From: a virus
Lineage: Duplodnaviria > Caudoviricetes
Virus record (IMG/VR): IMGVR_UViG_3300044858_003222
Span: 1-36,147 of that record
Strand: one strand, 5' to 3'
Length of the DNA: 36,147 bases
The first letter of the stretch is position 1. Every line of letters starts with the position of its first letter. Below, in pieces: positions 4,401 through 27,464 of the stretch. Under the pieces are notes generated by a model. It did not search any database. It saw only the letters and a list, made by a program, of their open reading frames with translations, and was not told where the DNA came from. The translations under genes were made by a program, and so were the position numbers.

Positions 4401-4478
4401 CGTAACATTTTTTTGTTTTTATCGTAACAAATCGTAACTTAGCGTAACAAAACGTAACAAATCGTAACAAATCGTAAC
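4401..4478 (+). repeat. CGTAAC repeat array with exact 10-bp phasing
   Basis: CGTAAC starts at 4401, 4423, 4433, 4443, 4453, 4463 and 4473. Confidence 0.95.
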
Positions 4479-4480
4479 AC

Positions 4481-4750
4481 ATGATAAAGAAGAAAGAAAA
4501 CTGCAAATATTGCGGTGAAAAAATGGAAAGCAGAACTGCTAAAAAAAGTTTTTGTTCTGAAAAATGTAGAGTGTATTTTAACAGGGAGTCTAAGTGCTCA
4601 AAAACCCTACTTGAAATTATAGATACCACTGGAGAACCTAATATCTTAGCTAATTTACCCATCAAAGAAGTGGGTAATAAAAAACAAATGCCTAAAGGAC
4701 TCAGTATTCAAGAACGTATAGAATGGTTAGAAGAAAATGAGAAACTATAA
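4481..4750 (+). CDS. Zinc-finger protein (CxxC...FCSxxC)
   Basis: CKYCGE...KKSFCSEKCR; ATG lies 2 nt after the repeat array. Confidence 0.7.
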   Translation: MIKKKENCKYCGEKMESRTAKKSFCSEKCRVYFNRESKCSKTLLEIIDTTGEPNILANLPIKEVGNKKQMPKGLSIQERIEWLEENEKL

Positions 4751-11336: not shown

Positions 11337-11364
11337 ATTAGTAATTTTACAAAAATTAAATTAA

Positions 11365-11649: not shown

Positions 11650-11695
11650 AAAATGCCTTCAAAATTTTGGGGGCATTTTATTTTTATATCCTATA
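11650..11695 (+). terminator. Intrinsic terminator after groES
   Basis: AAAATGCCTTCAA...TTGGGGGCATTTT followed by a T-rich tail. Confidence 0.7.
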
Positions 11696-11718
11696 AAAAA
11701 CTTAATTTTATACCATCT

Positions 11719-12570
11719 ATGAGCGCACAACCGATAAACCATATTTTTCTTAATTTAGACAAGCCTATTCAAGATACAATCAAAATAGGTGATTTAGAGT
11801 TATACCTAGACGGTTCGTTTCGTCCTGAATGGAACGCAACAGTTGTTGGTGAAATAGCTGCATTGCCAGAAAACCCTAAAGGTGAATATGCTGAAACTGT
11901 TTCTAAATTAAAAGTTGGAGATAAAGTTTTATTTGATTATTCAGTAGTTGCTGAAAGAAAATTTGAATCAGATGGAGCTTATTTTACTGAGGTTACAAAA
12001 GATAGTCCTTATTATCAAAAATTTATTAATGGTAAGGGTGAGAAAATATTTATTGTAGCAATGCCGGGTAAAATTACTCATACTTGGTCTGGAACTTTTA
12101 GTGATAATCGTGGAAATTTTGTTCATGGATGCCAAGGTTCTGAAAGCGAATTAAGCAGGTGGAAATCTCAATTTAGTTTTGGAGAAACACAGCAGTTCTT
12201 TTTTACAAATCTTTTAGACACAGGAAATGGAGATGTATGGAAAGCTTCGTATAGAGATATTTATGCAAAGTTTGAAGGAGATGAATTAAAAACAGTTGGC
12301 GATAGAATTATTCTTGAACCAATAGATTTAGATATTCCAAAAGAAGTATTGACCCAAATGGGAATAGAGCTACCGCAAAGTACATTTAAAGCAAGACTTG
12401 GCGATAGAGCAAAAGTTATTTCAGCTCCAGAAGGTTCTGATTTAAAAGTAGGTGATGTTGTTGGATTTGAGGAGAAGTATTTGGAGAAGTACGAATACAA
12501 CGGTAAAAATTATTATTTAATAAAATCCCGGAGAGCTCTGGGAGTTTGGGAGGAAGAAAATGGCCTATAA
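11719..12570 (+). CDS. Protein with two GroES-like domains (start moved to ATG 11719)
   Basis: GEIAALP...LKVGDKVLFDY and DRIILEPI...GIELP...LKVGDVVGF...NGKNYYLIK; the upstream ATG at 11653 lies inside a terminator. Confidence 0.65.
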   Translation: MSAQPINHIFLNLDKPIQDTIKIGDLELYLDGSFRPEWNATVVGEIAALPENPKGEYAETVSKLKVGDKVLFDYSVVAERKFESDGAYFTEVTKDSPYYQKFINGKGEKIFIVAMPGKITHTWSGTFSDNRGNFVHGCQGSESELSRWKSQFSFGETQQFFFTNLLDTGNGDVWKASYRDIYAKFEGDELKTVGDRIILEPIDLDIPKEVLTQMGIELPQSTFKARLGDRAKVISAPEGSDLKVGDVVGFEEKYLEKYEYNGKNYYLIKSRRALGVWEEENGL

Positions 12571-18096: not shown

Positions 18097-18145
18097 TTAA
18101 ATTTGAAAAATAAATAGTAATTTTAAACATCTAAATTAGATATAT

Positions 18146-18751
18146 ATGGACCCGTTTATGATAGGAGGTGCTGTAACAAGCGGCCTTGGTGCTCTTGGTA
18201 AAGTTTTTGCAGGAATAAAGCAGAACAAACTTGCCAATCAAATCAATCCTTTTTTTCAGCAGTATCAAAAAAATCCATTAGCGCAGGAAAATTTAGCTGT
18301 AAATAAAAATATGTTCTATGGCCGTATGCCGGGAGCACAAAAAGCTGAATCTAATATCATGCAATTGCAGTCTAATCTATTTTCAAACGCACAAAGAGGG
18401 GCAACTGATGCTTCTCAGTTGATAGCTGTTGGTTCAGGATTGCAGGGTGGAACTAATGAAGCGTTTTCTAATTTAGCTGCTGCTGAAGGTCAAAGTAAAG
18501 CAGGTTTGCTTACTAATTTAGGTCAAGCATATAGAGGAGCTATTTCAGAAGGAGATAAGGCTTATGAAAGTATGGCTCAAAAATTTCAAATGGATAATCA
18601 AGCTAAGGCTGCTCTTAGACAATCTGGTATGCAGAATATATTTGGCGGTATTGGAGATATTGGAGCAGGAGCTATGCAATTTGGTATGCTAAAAAATCCA
18701 ACGAAATACGGAAATTTTTTATCTAAAACTGGTAGTGCATCTTTAGGATAA
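18146..18751 (+). CDS. Putative ejection/pilot protein
   Basis: Gly/Ala-rich hydrophobic ends and a Gln-rich helical middle; follows the nozzle gene. Confidence 0.55.
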   Translation: MDPFMIGGAVTSGLGALGKVFAGIKQNKLANQINPFFQQYQKNPLAQENLAVNKNMFYGRMPGAQKAESNIMQLQSNLFSNAQRGATDASQLIAVGSGLQGGTNEAFSNLAAAEGQSKAGLLTNLGQAYRGAISEGDKAYESMAQKFQMDNQAKAALRQSGMQNIFGGIGDIGAGAMQFGMLKNPTKYGNFLSKTGSASLG

Positions 18752-20297: not shown

Positions 20298-23200
20298 ATG
20301 GAAGATAACAGTTTTTTTTCTGAATCTGATGGTAATGTAGGTCAAAAACAAGAAAATCCTTTTCTTGAATTTGGTGGTAATATAAAACAAAAAGAAGATA
20401 ATCCATTTTCTGAATTTGGAGGTAGTTTAAAAAAAAAATCTACTCCTGTAGTATCTTCGGGTATACCATCACAATTACCAAGTCAGCCTGATTTTTTAAA
20501 GCAAGGAGCTTCATTAGCTGATAATAGTTTCTTAAAGGAGATTAGTAAATCTACTGCACAATCTGTTGGTCAACCATCTTCTAAGTCAAAATTACCATTA
20601 GAAGGCTTTAGTCAAAAGCAGATTGATTTGCTTAAGAAGGGAGTTGAAAAACCTGCTCAAAAAACGAGTGGCGGATTGATGATACCTACCAATTTGCCAA
20701 AGGAAGATGGGGAGGATAAGGATGAATGGAAGCTTAAAAATTTAGTTCAGAATGTATTTGCTAATTTTGAATTAGCAGGTACTAATTTATTAGCAGATGC
20801 TACTACATTAGTTAAAGACTTGTCTAAAAACCCTTATATTCCTGATGTATCTGCTGTGATGAAAGAAGCAGAAAAAAGTACAGGGAAGTCAATTCCTACT
20901 CCGTGGGAGTTAGACCCTCTTGGTGGTGTAATCAGAGGATTGCATGGTAATCAGGAAAGGATGAAAGAAGTTATTGCTAACAATCCTTTGCCAAATACAT
21001 TTTGGGGTAAGGCAGTGTCATCTGTTGCTAGTTTTGCTCCAGATATTGCAGCTACCGCATTATTGCCAGAAGCTAAATTAGCTCAAGGAGCAAGTTTTTT
21101 AACTAAAACGGGTAACTTATTATTAAATAATTTTACTAAATACATCACAACTAAGGAAGCTTTATCTGGATATGGGGAAGCTAGAAAAAAAGGTGAGGAT
21201 ATTGGAGAGGCTTCGTTAGAAGGCATAAAAGGAGCTGGTAGGGGCTTAAAAACAGGTGTTGAGCTTGCGATTCTTGGAGCAGGTAGTAATGTTGCTACCA
21301 AGTCGGTTATGAATAAGCTTGCACAGTATGGATTAGCGAATATGCCAACTAAAGAACTTGTTAATGCAGGTACAGACCTTCTTGCTTATAGTATAGCTAG
21401 TCCTTATGCTAATGCAGGATTAGAAGGTAGATTAGCTACTGCTGATGAAATTGCAAATGGGGCAGGTGTTGCTTTATTGTTTAGATTAAAAGGAGCAGCA
21501 GAAAATATTAAATCTAATGTAAAACTAAATAAGGCCTTAGAAGAAACCTTAGCAATGAAGCAAGGTGCTGCTGTTTCAAACTTTGTAGATGCTACACCTA
21601 AAAGTATTGTTGAAGTTTATAATTCAAAAGAAAGTGCCGATGAATTTCAATTAAGGGCATTAGCGGCTGCTAAAAAAGCAAGAGAAACTACGGATTTACA
21701 AAAGAAGGCAAAATATGTAGTTGAGGCTAGTACTCTTGTTAGGGCTGCTAATGTTAAGCAAGTTGCTGACATGGTTATTAATAACAGAGATGGATTTGCT
21801 GAATTGAAGGCAAGTGACTTACCTGAGAGTGCTAAAAACGAATTTTTACAAAAAGCTGAGGAAATAAATAAACTTCTAAATCCATTTGAAAAATCAAAGA
21901 CAGATTTAGATAATAAAATAAAAGAATCAGAAGATTTATTCTCTCAATTATCTCAACAGGCAGAACAATCTCAAGACCCAAATGAAAGAGCTCAACTTGA
22001 AGCTCAGGCAAGAGAAGCAAAAGATAGTGCAGAAAAATTTAGAAATGAATTAGCAGAAGTTAAGTTTAATCAAAATAGACCAGATGCTAATGCAGGGAAA
22101 GCTCCTGTAATGGAAGGAGAGGTTGCTCCTGCTGAAGTTAAAATTGGTGATAGTGTTCAATGGACATCTCAAGGCACAGACCAATTTACTGAACCAAGAA
22201 AAATAAAATCTATATCAGAAGATGGTAAATACGCTTTTGTAGAAGGTAGCGATACTGGTATACCTGTATCTGAATTATCAGTTACTGAAGTTAAACCAAC
22301 TGAAGTAAAGTCTGTAGAACAATTAAGAGCAGATGAGCAAGCTGAACTTGATTCTAAGATACCAAATGCAGAACAATACAGAGTAGATGGTAAGGTAGAT
22401 AGAAATAAATTAACGAATGAAGAAGATATAAAAGCTTTTGATGAAGTTTATAATAAATATGATAAGTTAATATCTCCTTTATTAGAGAAGCCAGCAGAAC
22501 AAAAGATAACGGTAGAATTGTTGTCATCTCAAGAGCCTCCTCAAAAAGAAGGAGAAACTATTGTTACATTAAGTGGTAAAACTGAATCGGAAAGAACTGC
22601 TTCTATTGAGCAAAGACAAAAAGATACTAAGGTTTCAGATAAAGTAGTGTCAGATAATGAAATAGTTCAAGCTGCTGAATCTTATTTTAAGAAAAGCGGA
22701 AACTATAAAAATAGCGCAGATGGGAGAGCTGAATTAAATAATTTAAGAATTAAGGCTAGGGAAAATGGCTTAACAATAGATACCGAAAGAGATGCTGTTA
22801 CAAAGTTAAATAAAGCAGGCAGACCTAGAAAGGTTCTTTACAATAATAAAGCTGATGGTGAAGCTGTTGTTGAGCCAAATGCTAAAACTTTAAGAGATAG
22901 GGATATAAATACTCAAAAAGTATATGAAGAACTTACGGATTCTGGAGTATTTTTAGATGTTGAATCTGGGTCTGGAAAAAGAATGAGTGCTTCTCAAATA
23001 GAGGCAGCTATTAAAGATATTAATGAAGGTATACCAAGCAAGCGTGCTAATAAGTATTTAGATGCTTTAGAAAAAGGTCTTGCAGAAGATGCCTTTCCTT
23101 TATACGATAAAGGTATGGGAGGGTTTGCTCCTAAATTAGTTGATATTAGAGCTCAATTGGGTGTTGAAAAAGAAATAGTCGGAGAGCCAATGGATGAGGT

Positions 23201-26200
23201 TGCATTGAATAAATTCTTAGATGAAGAATCAAAACTTACACCTGAAAAAGAACAAGACCTATTAGATAACGTAGAAAATTTACTTTATGAATACGAAACA
23301 ACAGAAGCAGGACCTGAAGGAAAGGTTCAACCAATTGAAGCCGGAGCAAAAGAAGGAGTTCCTTCAGAGGTTAAACCGTCTGAACCTACTAAAAGCGAAA
23401 GACAGGAAGCTAAACAAGAATTAAAACCTGTAAAAGAAAGTGCGGGAAAGCCAAAAGAAGAAGTTAAACCAACTGAATTTAAAGACTTTACGTCAAAAAG
23501 TGGTAATAAAGTTGTTGATGAAAAAGGTGAACCAAAAGTAGTATTTACTGGAACAAATGCAAATAAATTAAGTGATATTGATGCATTATATTTCGAAAAT
23601 GATAAGACTGTAAAAGAAAAACTATCAGATATGTCCCCACATTATCAAATATTTTTCACAGATAATAAGAACGAGGCAAAATCTTATGGTAAAAATACAT
23701 TTGAAGCAAATGTTTATATAAAAAATCCTGTTAAAAATAAAGCAGATTTAGTAAAAACAAAAAGTCAATTAATAAAAGAAGGATATGATGGATATATTTG
23801 GAAATCAGATGATGGCAGAACGCATTATATAGTATTTGACAAATCACAAATTCAAGAAGTTAAACCAACTGAGGTAAAAACAAAAGAAGAATACGAAAAA
23901 ATAAAATCTAATAAAAAGAAAAAGGATTTTGTAAGAAATAATCTACCTGAAGAATTTAAGCCATTGGCAGATGAATTAACAGAAGCCCAAATGTCTGAAA
24001 TAGTAGATAGTAATTTTGATTCAAAAACAATTAAAAATATACAAGATGCCATACAAAAGCAAAGCGCAGCAGAAGTACTTCAACCTAAACAGGAAGAAGT
24101 TGGAGGCACAGGGGGTGGACGTGAACGAGTGGAACAAGGAAAGCAAAGGGATGAGTCTACCGGAGAAGGCAAAGCCAAAGCCGCAGAAGAAACACAGCCC
24201 AAAGGTGCTAAGGAGGGCAAAGTAGAAGAACTTAAAACAAACGATAAATCAATCTTAAAAAGAATAACTGGTAGTGAAAATATATCAGATTCTGTAAAAG
24301 AGAAATTTAAAGATGATTTAAAATACGAAGTAAAAAGTAAAGAAGAAGCTAAAAGCATTGCTAAAAACATAATTAAAGAATATGGCACAGATGATGCTGT
24401 TACACTAGCTGAAGCTAATAAGTTTCATGGAGATGTAAATTCTTTTATATTTAGTGAAGCTATAAATGATACTTACATTAAAGAATCTGAGGCAAAAACA
24501 CCAGAGGAAAAATTAAAGTATGCTGAACAATGGGCTGATTACGCAATTAGATTTGATGAATCAGCTAGGTCTAAAGGTAGGTTTATATCTGCAATTTCTG
24601 ATTTCTACAAAAAATCACCTTTAGGTATAAAATTTGTAGAAAATGAAAGAAGAAACGAAGATTTTAAAAAATGGTATAAAGCCAAAGAGGGTTCATATAA
24701 AGAGGTGTTTGATGAATTGGTTCAAGACCCTAAGTTTAAATCTTTGATTGGTGAAGAAGTTCAAAAAGGATTAAAAGAAGAAAGAGCAGCTCAAAGACAA
24801 GCAAATAGAAAGAAGATTGAAGATTTTTTTGAAAATGCTAAATTAAAAGGCAATAATTTATACGCAGTACCTATTCCTCCTAAAGTTATTAATGGAGCAT
24901 TAGAAGTAATGAAACAATCTGTATTAGCAGGAGAAAGCGTAGTTTATGCTGTAAATAAAGCTATTGAGCACATATCTAAAGAAGTAAAAGATTGGGATAA
25001 GGAGAAGTTTAGAAAAGAATATGAAGCAAAATTATCTTCAATAGAGGGTAAAGCTGGTAAGAGAGAAAAAGAAGAACTTCCTGAAGATGCTAAAAATAGA
25101 ATACTTGATAAGTTTAGGAAAAAATTAAAAGGTCTTAAAGAAAGTCAAAAAGAGCAAGTAATTAGAAAATCATTTAAACAACTTGTTGAAAATGGAGCTT
25201 TAGAATATAATGACTTCAAAAAAATTATTTCTGAAACAATTGGATATGGTGAAATTACTCCAGAAGAAGCTGCAAAAATAACTAAGCTTGTTAATGATAT
25301 TAATTCAGTTGATGAATTAGCATCATCAATAAGAGATGAAGGGAATAGAACTGAGGCAAATTTATTAAAATACCAAAAAGCGAAAAAAGAAGCTGAAAAG
25401 TCAGCTACTGAATTAAATAAGATGGTATATAATAAGACTAATATATCTAATAGATTATTGTCTATTATGCAATTAAATACATTAGGTATACCTTCTTTGG
25501 TAAATAACCCTATTTTCAATATATGGAATCAGGCAACCGTAAGGTTCCCAAATGCTGTTTCTATGACAGTATTAGACCAGATTTTATATGGAGGAAGTAA
25601 AGTTTCTAATAAACTATTTGGAACAGTTATTTTATTACCAGAAAACAATGTACTTACTTCACAAAAAGAATTTTTTAAGAAAGGATTACAAGGAGGTAAA
25701 CTTTCAGCAGAACAATTATTTACAGGATTAACCAATAGGGATTATTTCCAAAAAGAAATATATAGCTCTCAGATTCATCCATTTACATCTATTAAGGATT
25801 TATGGGATTGGAAATTTAAAGGTAAGAATTTAACTCCGGCTCAGGTTGCCGACAAATCAATACAGGCGACAGTAGGTTTACCTGCTGAGATAGTAGCTAG
25901 GGCTTTGAATATTGGTGATAAACCTCAAAGATTTGCAGCAGAAGGTGCTCAGGCAGCAGTATTTGCTAAAAACCTTGGATTAAAAGATATTGATTATGAG
26001 TATTTCTTAGAATTTCCAAAAGAAGAAGCTTATCGAGCTTTTAAAAAACAAGGTTTTTCTGATGATGTTGCAATGAAAAAAGCAGAAGAAATACAAGAAA
26101 GAATTATTAAGCAAGGAGAAGAATCCACATTCCAGCAAGATAATTTATTAAATGATGCGGTAAATTCAGCATTTAAAGTATTCGGAACACCCGGTGAGAT

Positions 26201-27464
26201 TTTTAAGAAGTTTAATATGCCGTATCTTAAAATACCTTTAAATGCCTTTTGGTCTGTATATAATTTAGTTAATCCAGAAGTCGCTTTTTTACAATCTGCG
26301 GTATATGGAACAAAGGCTATAAAATCAGGTTCGTCATTAGATATTCAACAATCAAAAAAGTGGTTTGCTCATGGCGTTACAGGTATTGCATTAACTGGTA
26401 TTGCGGGTGCATTGGCTTCAAACGGAATAGTAAATTCTAATAATGCAGATGATACAACTAAAAAAGAGAGAATAGGAGAAAAAACCTATGAACAACAAAA
26501 TAGTATTAATGTAACTAAATTAAATGCATATTTAAGAGGTGAAAATCCTGATGATGTTAAAAATAGTTTAAATGTTGATTTAAAATGGTTTGGTAATGTT
26601 GGTAATATACTCAATGTAGAGTCAAGAAAGCTAGAAGAAATGACACCAGAGCAAAGAAAAAATGGTATGTCGTATATGGAAGATATGTTATCTAGTATGA
26701 AAATATCTAGCATGGAGTTAATAGAAAATGGAGTATTTTCAAATACATCTGGTTTGTTAACAGCAATAGATAAAGGTGGAAATTTTGCTGATGCCTATGT
26801 ATTGAATTTAATAAACATGGGAACAAATATTGTTCAACCTGCAATGTTTGCTCAAATGTCAAGAGCTGAATTGCCATACTACTCTCAGCAAAAAGCTGAT
26901 ACTTTTATGGAGCAATTGAAAAATAATTTACTCACTAGGTCATCGACATTAAGAGCTTTATCAGGAAAGTATCCTCCTTCTCAAATAGGAGTATGGGGAG
27001 ATAAGTTAGATAGAAAAGACAATATAGCAATGAAGCTGTTTGGAATAAGTTCTAATAACAATGATAATTTTGCACAACCCATATACAATGATTATAAAAA
27101 AACAGATAATACTGCATTTTTACCTCCATCAGTAAAACCAGAAGTTAATGGTTTTAAATTAAATACATCTGAGGCTAATAAATTAGAAATATTAGTTGGT
27201 CAAGCTAGAAAGAATTTAGTTGCCCCATTTGTAAATGATGGAGCTAAACTTAGCGGTTTTAAAGATAGGTATAGTAAATTATCTGAAGAAGATAAGGTAA
27301 AAGCATTGGGTATTATATATAAAATGGGATACCAAGTTGGAGAAAAGCAATTTACTGACTTATATCCGCAATTTTATAAATCAGATAAAAAAACACCTGA
27401 ACAAAAGAAAGAGTCTAAGGAAAGTTCAATTTTTAGAAAATCATTAAAAAAGTTTATTAGATGA
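20298..27464 (+). CDS. Giant internal virion (polyvalent/ejection) protein, 2388 aa
   Basis: N-terminal NPFxEFGG repeats, hydrophobic Gly/Ala segments, coiled coils, modular centre including an ART-PolyVal-like domain. Confidence 0.7.
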   Translation: MEDNSFFSESDGNVGQKQENPFLEFGGNIKQKEDNPFSEFGGSLKKKSTPVVSSGIPSQLPSQPDFLKQGASLADNSFLKEISKSTAQSVGQPSSKSKLPLEGFSQKQIDLLKKGVEKPAQKTSGGLMIPTNLPKEDGEDKDEWKLKNLVQNVFANFELAGTNLLADATTLVKDLSKNPYIPDVSAVMKEAEKSTGKSIPTPWELDPLGGVIRGLHGNQERMKEVIANNPLPNTFWGKAVSSVASFAPDIAATALLPEAKLAQGASFLTKTGNLLLNNFTKYITTKEALSGYGEARKKGEDIGEASLEGIKGAGRGLKTGVELAILGAGSNVATKSVMNKLAQYGLANMPTKELVNAGTDLLAYSIASPYANAGLEGRLATADEIANGAGVALLFRLKGAAENIKSNVKLNKALEETLAMKQGAAVSNFVDATPKSIVEVYNSKESADEFQLRALAAAKKARETTDLQKKAKYVVEASTLVRAANVKQVADMVINNRDGFAELKASDLPESAKNEFLQKAEEINKLLNPFEKSKTDLDNKIKESEDLFSQLSQQAEQSQDPNERAQLEAQAREAKDSAEKFRNELAEVKFNQNRPDANAGKAPVMEGEVAPAEVKIGDSVQWTSQGTDQFTEPRKIKSISEDGKYAFVEGSDTGIPVSELSVTEVKPTEVKSVEQLRADEQAELDSKIPNAEQYRVDGKVDRNKLTNEEDIKAFDEVYNKYDKLISPLLEKPAEQKITVELLSSQEPPQKEGETIVTLSGKTESERTASIEQRQKDTKVSDKVVSDNEIVQAAESYFKKSGNYKNSADGRAELNNLRIKARENGLTIDTERDAVTKLNKAGRPRKVLYNNKADGEAVVEPNAKTLRDRDINTQKVYEELTDSGVFLDVESGSGKRMSASQIEAAIKDINEGIPSKRANKYLDALEKGLAEDAFPLYDKGMGGFAPKLVDIRAQLGVEKEIVGEPMDEVALNKFLDEESKLTPEKEQDLLDNVENLLYEYETTEAGPEGKVQPIEAGAKEGVPSEVKPSEPTKSERQEAKQELKPVKESAGKPKEEVKPTEFKDFTSKSGNKVVDEKGEPKVVFTGTNANKLSDIDALYFENDKTVKEKLSDMSPHYQIFFTDNKNEAKSYGKNTFEANVYIKNPVKNKADLVKTKSQLIKEGYDGYIWKSDDGRTHYIVFDKSQIQEVKPTEVKTKEEYEKIKSNKKKKDFVRNNLPEEFKPLADELTEAQMSEIVDSNFDSKTIKNIQDAIQKQSAAEVLQPKQEEVGGTGGGRERVEQGKQRDESTGEGKAKAAEETQPKGAKEGKVEELKTNDKSILKRITGSENISDSVKEKFKDDLKYEVKSKEEAKSIAKNIIKEYGTDDAVTLAEANKFHGDVNSFIFSEAINDTYIKESEAKTPEEKLKYAEQWADYAIRFDESARSKGRFISAISDFYKKSPLGIKFVENERRNEDFKKWYKAKEGSYKEVFDELVQDPKFKSLIGEEVQKGLKEERAAQRQANRKKIEDFFENAKLKGNNLYAVPIPPKVINGALEVMKQSVLAGESVVYAVNKAIEHISKEVKDWDKEKFRKEYEAKLSSIEGKAGKREKEELPEDAKNRILDKFRKKLKGLKESQKEQVIRKSFKQLVENGALEYNDFKKIISETIGYGEITPEEAAKITKLVNDINSVDELASSIRDEGNRTEANLLKYQKAKKEAEKSATELNKMVYNKTNISNRLLSIMQLNTLGIPSLVNNPIFNIWNQATVRFPNAVSMTVLDQILYGGSKVSNKLFGTVILLPENNVLTSQKEFFKKGLQGGKLSAEQLFTGLTNRDYFQKEIYSSQIHPFTSIKDLWDWKFKGKNLTPAQVADKSIQATVGLPAEIVARALNIGDKPQRFAAEGAQAAVFAKNLGLKDIDYEYFLEFPKEEAYRAFKKQGFSDDVAMKKAEEIQERIIKQGEESTFQQDNLLNDAVNSAFKVFGTPGEIFKKFNMPYLKIPLNAFWSVYNLVNPEVAFLQSAVYGTKAIKSGSSLDIQQSKKWFAHGVTGIALTGIAGALASNGIVNSNNADDTTKKERIGEKTYEQQNSINVTKLNAYLRGENPDDVKNSLNVDLKWFGNVGNILNVESRKLEEMTPEQRKNGMSYMEDMLSSMKISSMELIENGVFSNTSGLLTAIDKGGNFADAYVLNLINMGTNIVQPAMFAQMSRAELPYYSQQKADTFMEQLKNNLLTRSSTLRALSGKYPPSQIGVWGDKLDRKDNIAMKLFGISSNNNDNFAQPIYNDYKKTDNTAFLPPSVKPEVNGFKLNTSEANKLEILVGQARKNLVAPFVNDGAKLSGFKDRYSKLSEEDKVKALGIIYKMGYQVGEKQFTDLYPQFYKSDKKTPEQKKESKESSIFRKSLKKFIR
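22287..23872 (+). repeat. Dispersed direct repeat GAAGTTAAACCAACTGA (encodes EVKPTE), three copies
   Basis: Copies at 22287..22303, 23460..23476 and 23856..23872. Confidence 0.9.
23287..23424 (+). CDS. Possible overprinted +1-frame ORF, 45 aa
   Basis: MNTKQQKQDLKERFNQLKPEQKKEFLQRLNRLNLLKAKDRKLNKN. Confidence 0.35.
   Translation: MNTKQQKQDLKERFNQLKPEQKKEFLQRLNRLNLLKAKDRKLNKN
24046..24225 (+). CDS. Overprinted +1-frame small basic protein (MPYKSKAQ...), 59 aa
   Basis: TAATTTTG box at 24011..24018, A-rich leader, N-terminus resembling stand-alone phage MP(F/Y)KSxAQ proteins. Confidence 0.65.
   Translation: MPYKSKAQQKYFNLNRKKLEAQGVDVNEWNKESKGMSLPEKAKPKPQKKHSPKVLRRAK

Follow-up and report, generated by a model that had tools for sequence, protein, structure and literature searches.

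Organization of the locus

The window, by which we mean the whole stretch of DNA analysed here, is a linear virus record of 36,147 bases that is about 53% complete. Its recognizable genes encode a primase/helicase, virion structural proteins, and a terminase. The genes for products of 213, 213, 262, 1151, 201, 506, and 2388 residues are arranged in an order similar to that of the structural block of the Flavobacterium phage elemoF_6-3D, and a Bacteroidota host of the window phage is therefore likely. Elsewhere in the window, a gene for 305 residues with two GroES-like stretches occupies positions 11653–12570, and a short tandem repeat of CGTAACAAAT-like units lies at positions 4410–4480, upstream of the ORF that begins at 4481.

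The gene for 2388 residues (20298–27464, plus strand), hereafter the host gene, ends the 201/506/2388-residue trio that follows the virion structural genes. The single Pfam domain above cut-off in its product is ART-PolyVal (residues 1074–1188, E 1e-7; positions 23517–23861, plus strand). The domain is an optional insert located between the two nested genes described below; it is missing from four relatives (L003–L006) and is bypassed in one contig from an RNA run. Relatives of the host gene display modular swaps, and in L002, L003, and L005 the C-terminal half changes to an unrelated type directly after the stop codon of the nested gene. The polyvalent proteins described in PMC5512222 are giant modular phage proteins, which have been proposed to enter the cell together with the injected DNA. 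The host protein is likewise giant and modular, contains ART-PolyVal, and is encoded among virion genes, so that its gene position and this description point to a putative polyvalent-type ejection or cargo protein. Polyvalent proteins combine at least two domains of disparate activity, whereas one named domain was found in the window host. A text search of PMC5512222 turned up nothing on overlapping or nested genes.

The nested gene and its translation-initiation signal

The nested gene (24046–24225, plus strand) starts with an ATG at 24046, begins MPYKSKAQQKYFNLNRKKLEAQG, and ends with a TAG at 24225. Its frame is offset by +1 to the host ORF, which it overlaps from host residue 1250. The encoded protein of 59 residues belongs to the MP[FY]KSxAQ family, has a pI of 10.3, and contains 17 lysines and arginines (approximately 30%) and five aspartates and glutamates. 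The host-frame reading of the nested gene (24045–24224, plus strand; residues 1250–1309) is DAIQKQSAAEVLQPKQEEVGGTGGG, a low-complexity linker of glutamate, glycine, and glutamine with a net charge near zero. A first-pass annotation of this DNA had described a small gene lying wholly within the 2388-residue gene in the +1 frame, and the complete ORF of 59 codons across an open host frame bears this out. It is the longest of the 188 stop-free +1 stretches of the host gene, measuring 72 codons against 51 for the runner-up. The host frame stayed open in none of 1000 synonymous resamplings under host codon usage, which places the nested ORF far beyond chance. The host codons here had been called atypically GC-rich, and the GC indeed sits on host position 1 (0.63–0.68 compared with about 0.45), which is position 3 of the nested codons. 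The nested GC3 is 0.78, against 0.20–0.30 in four other genes of the window.

The nested gene is preceded by a translation-initiation region of the Bacteroidota type (24029–24045, plus strand), with no Shine–Dalgarno sequence and with adenines at −3, −11, −12, and −13. Adenines at −11, −12, and −13 are present in 0.72–0.95 of nested copies versus 0.27–0.54 at the remaining +1 ATGs of these genes; for the adenine at −3 the fractions are 0.65–0.85 versus 0.36. A-3, A-12, and A-13 are initiation determinants in Flavobacterium johnsoniae according to PMC6847099. In two GC-richer hosts (L017 and L039) and in L281, purine runs resembling Shine–Dalgarno sequences take the place of the adenine peaks. 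By this signature, the nested gene has its own translation-initiation signal at the level of sequence.

The first-pass annotation also gave the gene its own promoter. The elements it named are all present: the TAATTTTG box at 24011–24018, the 27-nt leader at 24019–24045, and the ATG at 24046. TAATTTTG matches TAnnTTTG, the −7 consensus of Bacteroidota primary-sigma promoters, at a distance of 27 nt from the ATG; the mean leader is 33 nt in the account of PMC6847099. ATAGTAATTTT, correctly said to recur before the gene at 18146, has exactly two occurrences, at 24007 and 18114. However, the box is confined to the lineage of the window, since it is found in three of 26 distinct sequences upstream of nested copies in giant genes and in none of 60 in scaffold genes, and the TAnnTTTG consensus is not enriched in the window (55 observed, 58.9 expected). 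An own promoter as a general feature of the arrangement was thus rejected, and the general element is the translation-initiation signature. The candidate promoter TAGTAATTTTG (24008–24018, plus strand), which fits the −7 consensus, is lineage-specific. The copy upstream of gene 18146 (18114–18124, plus strand) contains the core TAGTAATTTT, which is kept in the four relatives that extend this far. TAGTAATTTT occurs at 11339, 18115, and 24008, each time preceding a gene start (11365, 18146, and that of the nested gene), so TAATTTTG/TAGTAATTTT is a possible local late promoter of this lineage only. The three occurrences compare with 0.5 expected and were reached in two of 100 shuffles, for a motif picked post hoc.

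Selection acts on the nested frame

We compared the window with its six close relatives (L001–L006). Within nested codons 1–43, alleles are distributed over host positions 1, 2, and 3 in the ratio 14:7:2. In the remainder of the host gene the same seven sequences give 287:168:738 (chi-square p 1.4e-6), and in the 48 codons immediately upstream of the nested gene 5:2:14; all of these are counts of alleles, not of independent events. Fifteen of the 23 alleles in nested codons 1–43 are silent in the nested frame and two in the host frame. Conservation tracks the +1 frame and does not follow the host frame only, the pattern that would have spoken against a nested gene. The start codon, stop codon, and leader are intact in all seven sequences, and indels in the nested tail of L004 and L006 preserve both frames. 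What the host frame keeps across the overlap is freedom from stops, frame-keeping indels, and a tuned charge; its amino acids are not conserved. The shift in substitution pattern recurs in 16 disjoint pairs of the scaffold genes described below, with 64:44:37 inside the nested ORF against 477:272:1213 in the core; one further pair was skipped, as its members carry different subtypes.

Judged from its ORF, the selection on its frame, the constraint on the host frame, and its initiation signal, 24046–24225 has the features of a functional embedded gene, and we consider it very likely to be a working one. Three RNA runs (X1–X3, 5–7% of words) yielded scattered low-depth contigs of relatives that are uninformative on strand, start, or level, and no conclusion on expression or habitat was based on them.

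The overlap is recoded and its charge is tuned

The third codon positions of nested copies contain 0–5% T and 70–85% G or C, compared with 15–30% and 20–45% in free copies from AT-rich relatives. The avoidance of T removes stops from the host frame, of which there are none in nine nested copies and five to seven in 17 free AT-rich copies. In the same two sets, lysines are encoded by AAG in 49 of 70 and 38 of 145 cases, and the minus-one reading has a charge of −0.05 and +0.18, respectively. The host reading of the nested bases in the window contains 11 lysines and arginines and 12 aspartates and glutamates. When the overlap was resampled with the codon usage of the host gene itself and stops were forbidden (1000 draws per case), the expected charge of the window host reading was +0.24 (sd 0.05), whereas the observed value is −0.02, which none of the 1000 draws reached. 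The observed host charge lies below nearly all stop-free resamplings in each of 20 cases (fraction 0.012 or less). This G excess beyond stop removal, together with the charge shift, indicates that the small gene retains its amino acids and cedes its silent sites, and that the host gains a neutral-to-acidic linker. The first-pass wording of a captured gene that is simply read through by its host is therefore too narrow, both because the charge of the linker is tuned and because the hosts include scaffold genes.

The family has free and nested members

A word-indexed search yielded 53 homologues of 44–103 residues, every one beginning MPYKS, and a profile built from 30 free and nested members matched 4200 clusters at E 0.001 or better. 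Among the best 80 of 145 confirmed IMG/VR loci, 13 copies are nested and most of the others are free, which agrees with the statement of the first-pass annotation that MP(F/Y)KSxAQ proteins occur as free-standing phage genes. The nested copies lie in open frames of 867–3083 residues, invariably in the +1 frame, and come from the six close relatives and from four further types of host (L017; L019/21; L039; L073/74/77). The other nested hosts contain ddrB-ParB, ART-PolyVal, or Strawberry-notch helicase domains. Loci of high GC content in which the minus-one frame is long (L008, L084, and several of L281–L360) were excluded from the nested count, because long frames are common in such DNA. The minus-one frame of free copies has a mean of 4.9 stops over 41 codons and is free of stops in two of 64.

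Of the matches inspected in the genome collection, about 70 of 80 are free copies, found on contigs that are rich in GC and mostly bear the labels Acidobacteriota and Gemmatimonadota. Loci L288–L360, on GC-rich contigs of these and other labels, form a uniform free subfamily that begins MPFKS[KQ]AQRRKF... and has long tails of lysine, arginine, alanine, and proline. In long homologues the module is positioned at residue 1 (47 of 50), and KxA or E[SA] follows it in 37 of 50 long and 18 of 68 short homologues. In many proteins of at least 110 residues (P0056–P0202), the module forms an N-terminal cap, its partners are DUF5661, ParB-like, or cupin domains, and KxA/E[SA] often follows.

Searches of Pfam, PHROG, PDB sequences, and Foldseek with the nested protein gave no functional match, and the best PDB rows (E about 1) were dismissed as chance. 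The AlphaFold model of the nested protein has three short helices with a pLDDT of 66, too weak for interpretation. Seven of 30 family members match phrog_1375, of unknown function (best E 1.5e-5), and the window protein (P0001) does not. An Atlas cluster in which 15% of members carry DUF3008 (PF11450) scored 0.87, a lead below the 0.9 level, and the window protein has no Pfam match. Both PHROG 1375 and DUF3008 thus touch relatives of the window protein and not the protein itself.

Putative scaffold genes carry the nested gene in a shared slot

A DNA pattern that permits nesting matches about 1600 IMG/VR stretches. Among 80 loci with long flanks picked by this pattern, 16 copies are nested in frames of at least 1000 residues and 52 in a family of 340–445 residues; the total of 68 of 80 is inflated by design and is no measure of frequency. 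The 340–445-residue genes sit between the portal gene and the putative major capsid gene, the usual place of the head scaffold, and we regard them as putative head-scaffold genes. Nested copies start 24–66 codons into them, in the acidic N-terminus. To remove the bias of the pattern, scaffold genes were also selected by their C-terminal domain alone. The best 80 of 597, which were ranked by likeness to carriers and overlap the earlier set and so are not a random sample, include 28 with an intact and two with a truncated copy of the nested family, 25 with only an unrelated basic ORF of 39–64 residues in the identical slot and frame, and 25 with nothing. The cassette is thus optional, as 50 of the 80 scaffold genes lack the nested family. 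Truncated copies are those of L239, L263, and the second copy in Elemovirus.

The unrelated basic +1 ORFs in the slot of L201–L279 belong to the NKKKY family (21 of 80), the KFPxMSK family (four), and one other (L226); the slot of L219 holds two basic +1 ORFs. NKKKY is the commonest replacement and has no similarity to the nested family; its patterns match about 2700 IMG/VR stretches. In the best 80 NKKKY loci, the ORF always lies in an open host frame, which is at least 300 residues long in 75 and is cut by contig ends in five. Basic charge is the trait common to the four unrelated families that fill the scaffold slot.

The suggestion of the first-pass annotation that DAIQxQS linkers mark hidden genes held for all 20 distinct matches of DAIQxQS-like host motifs in the host-picked scaffold loci, a hidden gene being counted as an ATG with an ORF of at least 35 codons. 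In the cultured phage elemoF_6-3D (MT497071.1), one of two such motifs marks a qualifying ORF and the other a 10-codon remnant. The intact copy, of a divergent subtype, encodes 42 residues from an ATG at record position 52379 (L280:35253) and is nested at residue 1221 of a giant gene; only the host gene is annotated, and the elemo phage record bears the label 'structural protein'. The remnant lies at position 51983 (L280:34857), 396 nt upstream of the intact copy and in the same frame. The nested region recurs, with an identity of no less than 95%, in 68 Flavobacterium phage records, all of them Elemovirus. A tblastn search of GenBank phages with the 59-residue protein gave no match, and since the divergent Elemovirus copy exists, we attribute this to a sensitivity limit.

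Proposed origin and movement of the nested gene

For the subfamily of the window, 17 loci with free copies were checked. In 15 of them the copy lies 2–13 nt downstream of a giant gene, and every one of the 15 giant genes has BLAST matches to nested hosts. Seven loci (L016, L022, L023, L029, L037, L040, and L041) contain the giant gene in two parts with a ferritin-like gene in between. The first part ends in KC-x-x or RIC and the second begins with MGC or MANPC, a pattern suggestive of a cysteine bond joining the two parts of the split protein. In six of the seven split loci, the alignment of the second gene to the L003 host begins near residue 1088, at the end of the nested gene; it is preceded in the second gene by a 35-residue start module, which L003 seems to have before its nested gene. 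These alignments, with the caveat of their low identity (25–32%), suggest that the nested gene was inserted where two modules meet.

Nested and free copies interleave in an unrooted tree of 74 rows and 44 columns, with nine changes of state, at least three of which are forced by well-supported branches. None of 200 bootstrap trees has a single change, although the bootstrap had not settled, and several switches between the nested and free states are likely. Roughly five silent changes are needed to make a free copy nestable, and within one subfamily the nested copies reside in giant genes (L280) as well as in shorter hosts (L105/L150); these two findings fit a recoded cassette that was moved by recombination. 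The +1 frame is identical in unrelated hosts. A gene overprinted de novo would be younger and narrower in distribution than its host frame, which does not fit the 4200 clusters or the free copies whose other frame contains stops. The capture claimed by the first-pass annotation stands as far as a real nested gene is concerned, and its direction, from a free gene into a giant gene, is likely, though the tree is unrooted.

As in the overprinting described in PMC8227390, one stretch of DNA encodes two frames. In classical overprinting a de novo gene arises within an older one, whereas here the nested frame is widespread and conserved and the host frame is derived. Overlap through extension of a neighbouring gene has been modelled for partial overlaps in the text of PMC3887535.

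The cassettes may have formed from a lysine-rich gene which, when shifted back by one base, gives a GAA/GAG/GGA-rich sequence suited to a floppy linker. The silent loss of about five stops would turn such a unit into an in-frame cassette, which recombination could carry between sites where modules join in giant ejection genes and the acidic N-termini of scaffolds. Its minus-one reading would be a stop-free acidic linker, so that one DNA stretch would supply two opposite charges to one particle. That tailed phages of the Bacteroidota type swap portable dual-coding cassettes, made from several unrelated small basic genes, among scaffold and ejection slots is a proposition to which we give slightly less than an even chance.

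Possible function of the nested protein

Terminase, portal, or major head genes lie within two ORFs of free copies in 23 of 38 cases, a count for which 82 of 133 neighbours were scanned with no random-gene control. A role in the capsid is suggested by the strong basic charge common to the slot families, the head-gene neighbours, the nesting in virion genes, the N-terminal position of the module, and the motifs resembling head-protease sites that often follow it. KxA resembles sites cleaved by prohead proteases. Based on charge and gene context, the chances that the nested protein is small, binds DNA, and is packaged inside the head appear about even. Our reading of the system as a whole, in which the nested gene is selected in the +1 frame, is likely translated separately from the late message, and likely encodes a basic DNA-binding head protein, has a probability of roughly 0.6. 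Ribosomes would start internally at the A-rich leader, to which a local promoter possibly adds in this lineage only, and the product would neutralize charge or condense DNA in the head. The conserved aromatic core of the family (F12, W29, and LP), which suggests a specific partner, speaks against this role, and so do the free copies on contigs of soil bacteria, since a purely virion role would not explain chromosomal copies.

Two further readings accept a working gene and assign its product a different task. It could be an injected or cytoplasmic effector of takeover or counter-defence, as T4 IPI is, and not condense DNA. The hosts are of the polyvalent type for which PMC5512222 proposes injection with the DNA, the aromatic core exceeds the needs of a mere charge carrier, the cassette is optional and interchangeable, and the KxA/E[SA] after the module (37 of 50 long, 18 of 68 short) recalls the sites of prohead proteases, which in T4 and phiKZ are glutamate-directed in the description of PMC9026906. 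We nevertheless consider an effector unlikely, as our searches tied the nested family to no known group of defence or effector proteins and the trait shared by the four slot families is basic charge. Still less probable is an accessory of packaging or head assembly that binds the terminase, portal, or acidic scaffold and is absent from the mature particle. Such an accessory would account for the clustering of free copies near terminase and portal genes (23 of 38) and for the nesting in the acidic N-terminus of a gene between the portal and major capsid genes, but the family is also nested in or behind ejection-type genes remote from head genes, and unrelated families take its place.

The readings that dispense with a separate working gene are very improbable. 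Programmed frameshifting could reach the +1 ORF, so that the giant protein would be cut short and end in a basic tail, and the +1 frame is indeed open for 7–13 codons before the ATG in close relatives, some relatives being split into N- and C-genes. However, the ATG is kept while the host residue varies (D in 30 and N in 14 of 44, a result to which the search pattern contributes), initiation adenines are present upstream of it, the module is strictly N-terminal elsewhere, and the same gene begins 24–66 codons into scaffold genes. A fossil of a captured gene whose expression has ceased, or an ORF that is open by chance, would be in keeping with the decayed copies known elsewhere and deserves equally little credence: the substitution pattern flips within the ORF, the indels in L004 and L006 preserve both frames, and the start, stop, and leader are intact in all seven sequences.

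Among tailed phages, spanins are the best-known case of genes fully embedded out of frame, and such genes are usually seen as new ones over old ones. The closest precedent is the lambda Rz/Rz1 pair, as presented in PMC6139136, a small same-strand +1 gene inside a larger one over a flexible linker, which is also the arrangement found here. Spanin genes occur embedded, overlapped, and separated (PMC6139136), just as the nested family is free or nested. Rz/Rz1 is a fixed pair, whereas the nested family has unrelated hosts and other families fill its slot. PMC6139136 reports no spanin family that combines the embedded architecture with another one; in contrast, one subfamily here is both free and nested, and its nested frame is the older one. 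A spanin identity was rejected, as the nested protein, with no hydrophobic stretch and no cysteine, lacks membrane and lipoprotein features and its neighbours are virion and terminase genes with no lysis cassette. Another parallel is offered by the T4 internal head proteins IPI–III, which PMC9026906 describes as small, optional, variable, and expressed with head genes, and which as N-terminal modules are fused to diverse partners. The parallel is one of genetic behaviour and not of sequence, and the capsid location of the nested family is putative. A literature search outside most subscription journals found no account of the family or the arrangement.

If tailed phages do swap portable cassettes in this way, an entire unannotated layer of virion genes would be present in thousands of genomes of environmental phages and in at least one genus in culture. 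Gene callers miss nested copies of a family whose members number in the thousands, the copy in the cultured elemoF_6-3D included. On our reading, an old free-living family has become nested repeatedly in different hosts, with the host frame derived, and a simple codon rule connects the two: a lysine-rich gene gives a glutamate-rich minus-one reading. The natural series of free, nested, decayed, and replaced copies lets the emergence of long overlaps be tested.

A second nested gene in the host gene

A second nested ORF, likewise in the +1 frame, is located at positions 23287–23424 (plus strand). It is conserved in L003–L006, whereas the host residues across it change. It encodes a basic protein of 45 residues from an unrelated family (MNTKQQKQDL...). 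In L003–L006, after two rows outside the aligned range were dropped, eight alleles fall on host positions 1, 2, and 3 in the ratio 4:4:0; none of them is silent in the host frame and six are silent in the nested frame. A search for protein homologues of the product found none, and its support comes from the relatives alone. The host reading across this ORF is likewise charge-shifted. On these allele counts, 23287–23424 is also under +1-frame selection. L002 and L023 have ORFs resembling it at the corresponding position, where L016, L025, L028, and L029 have other basic ORFs.
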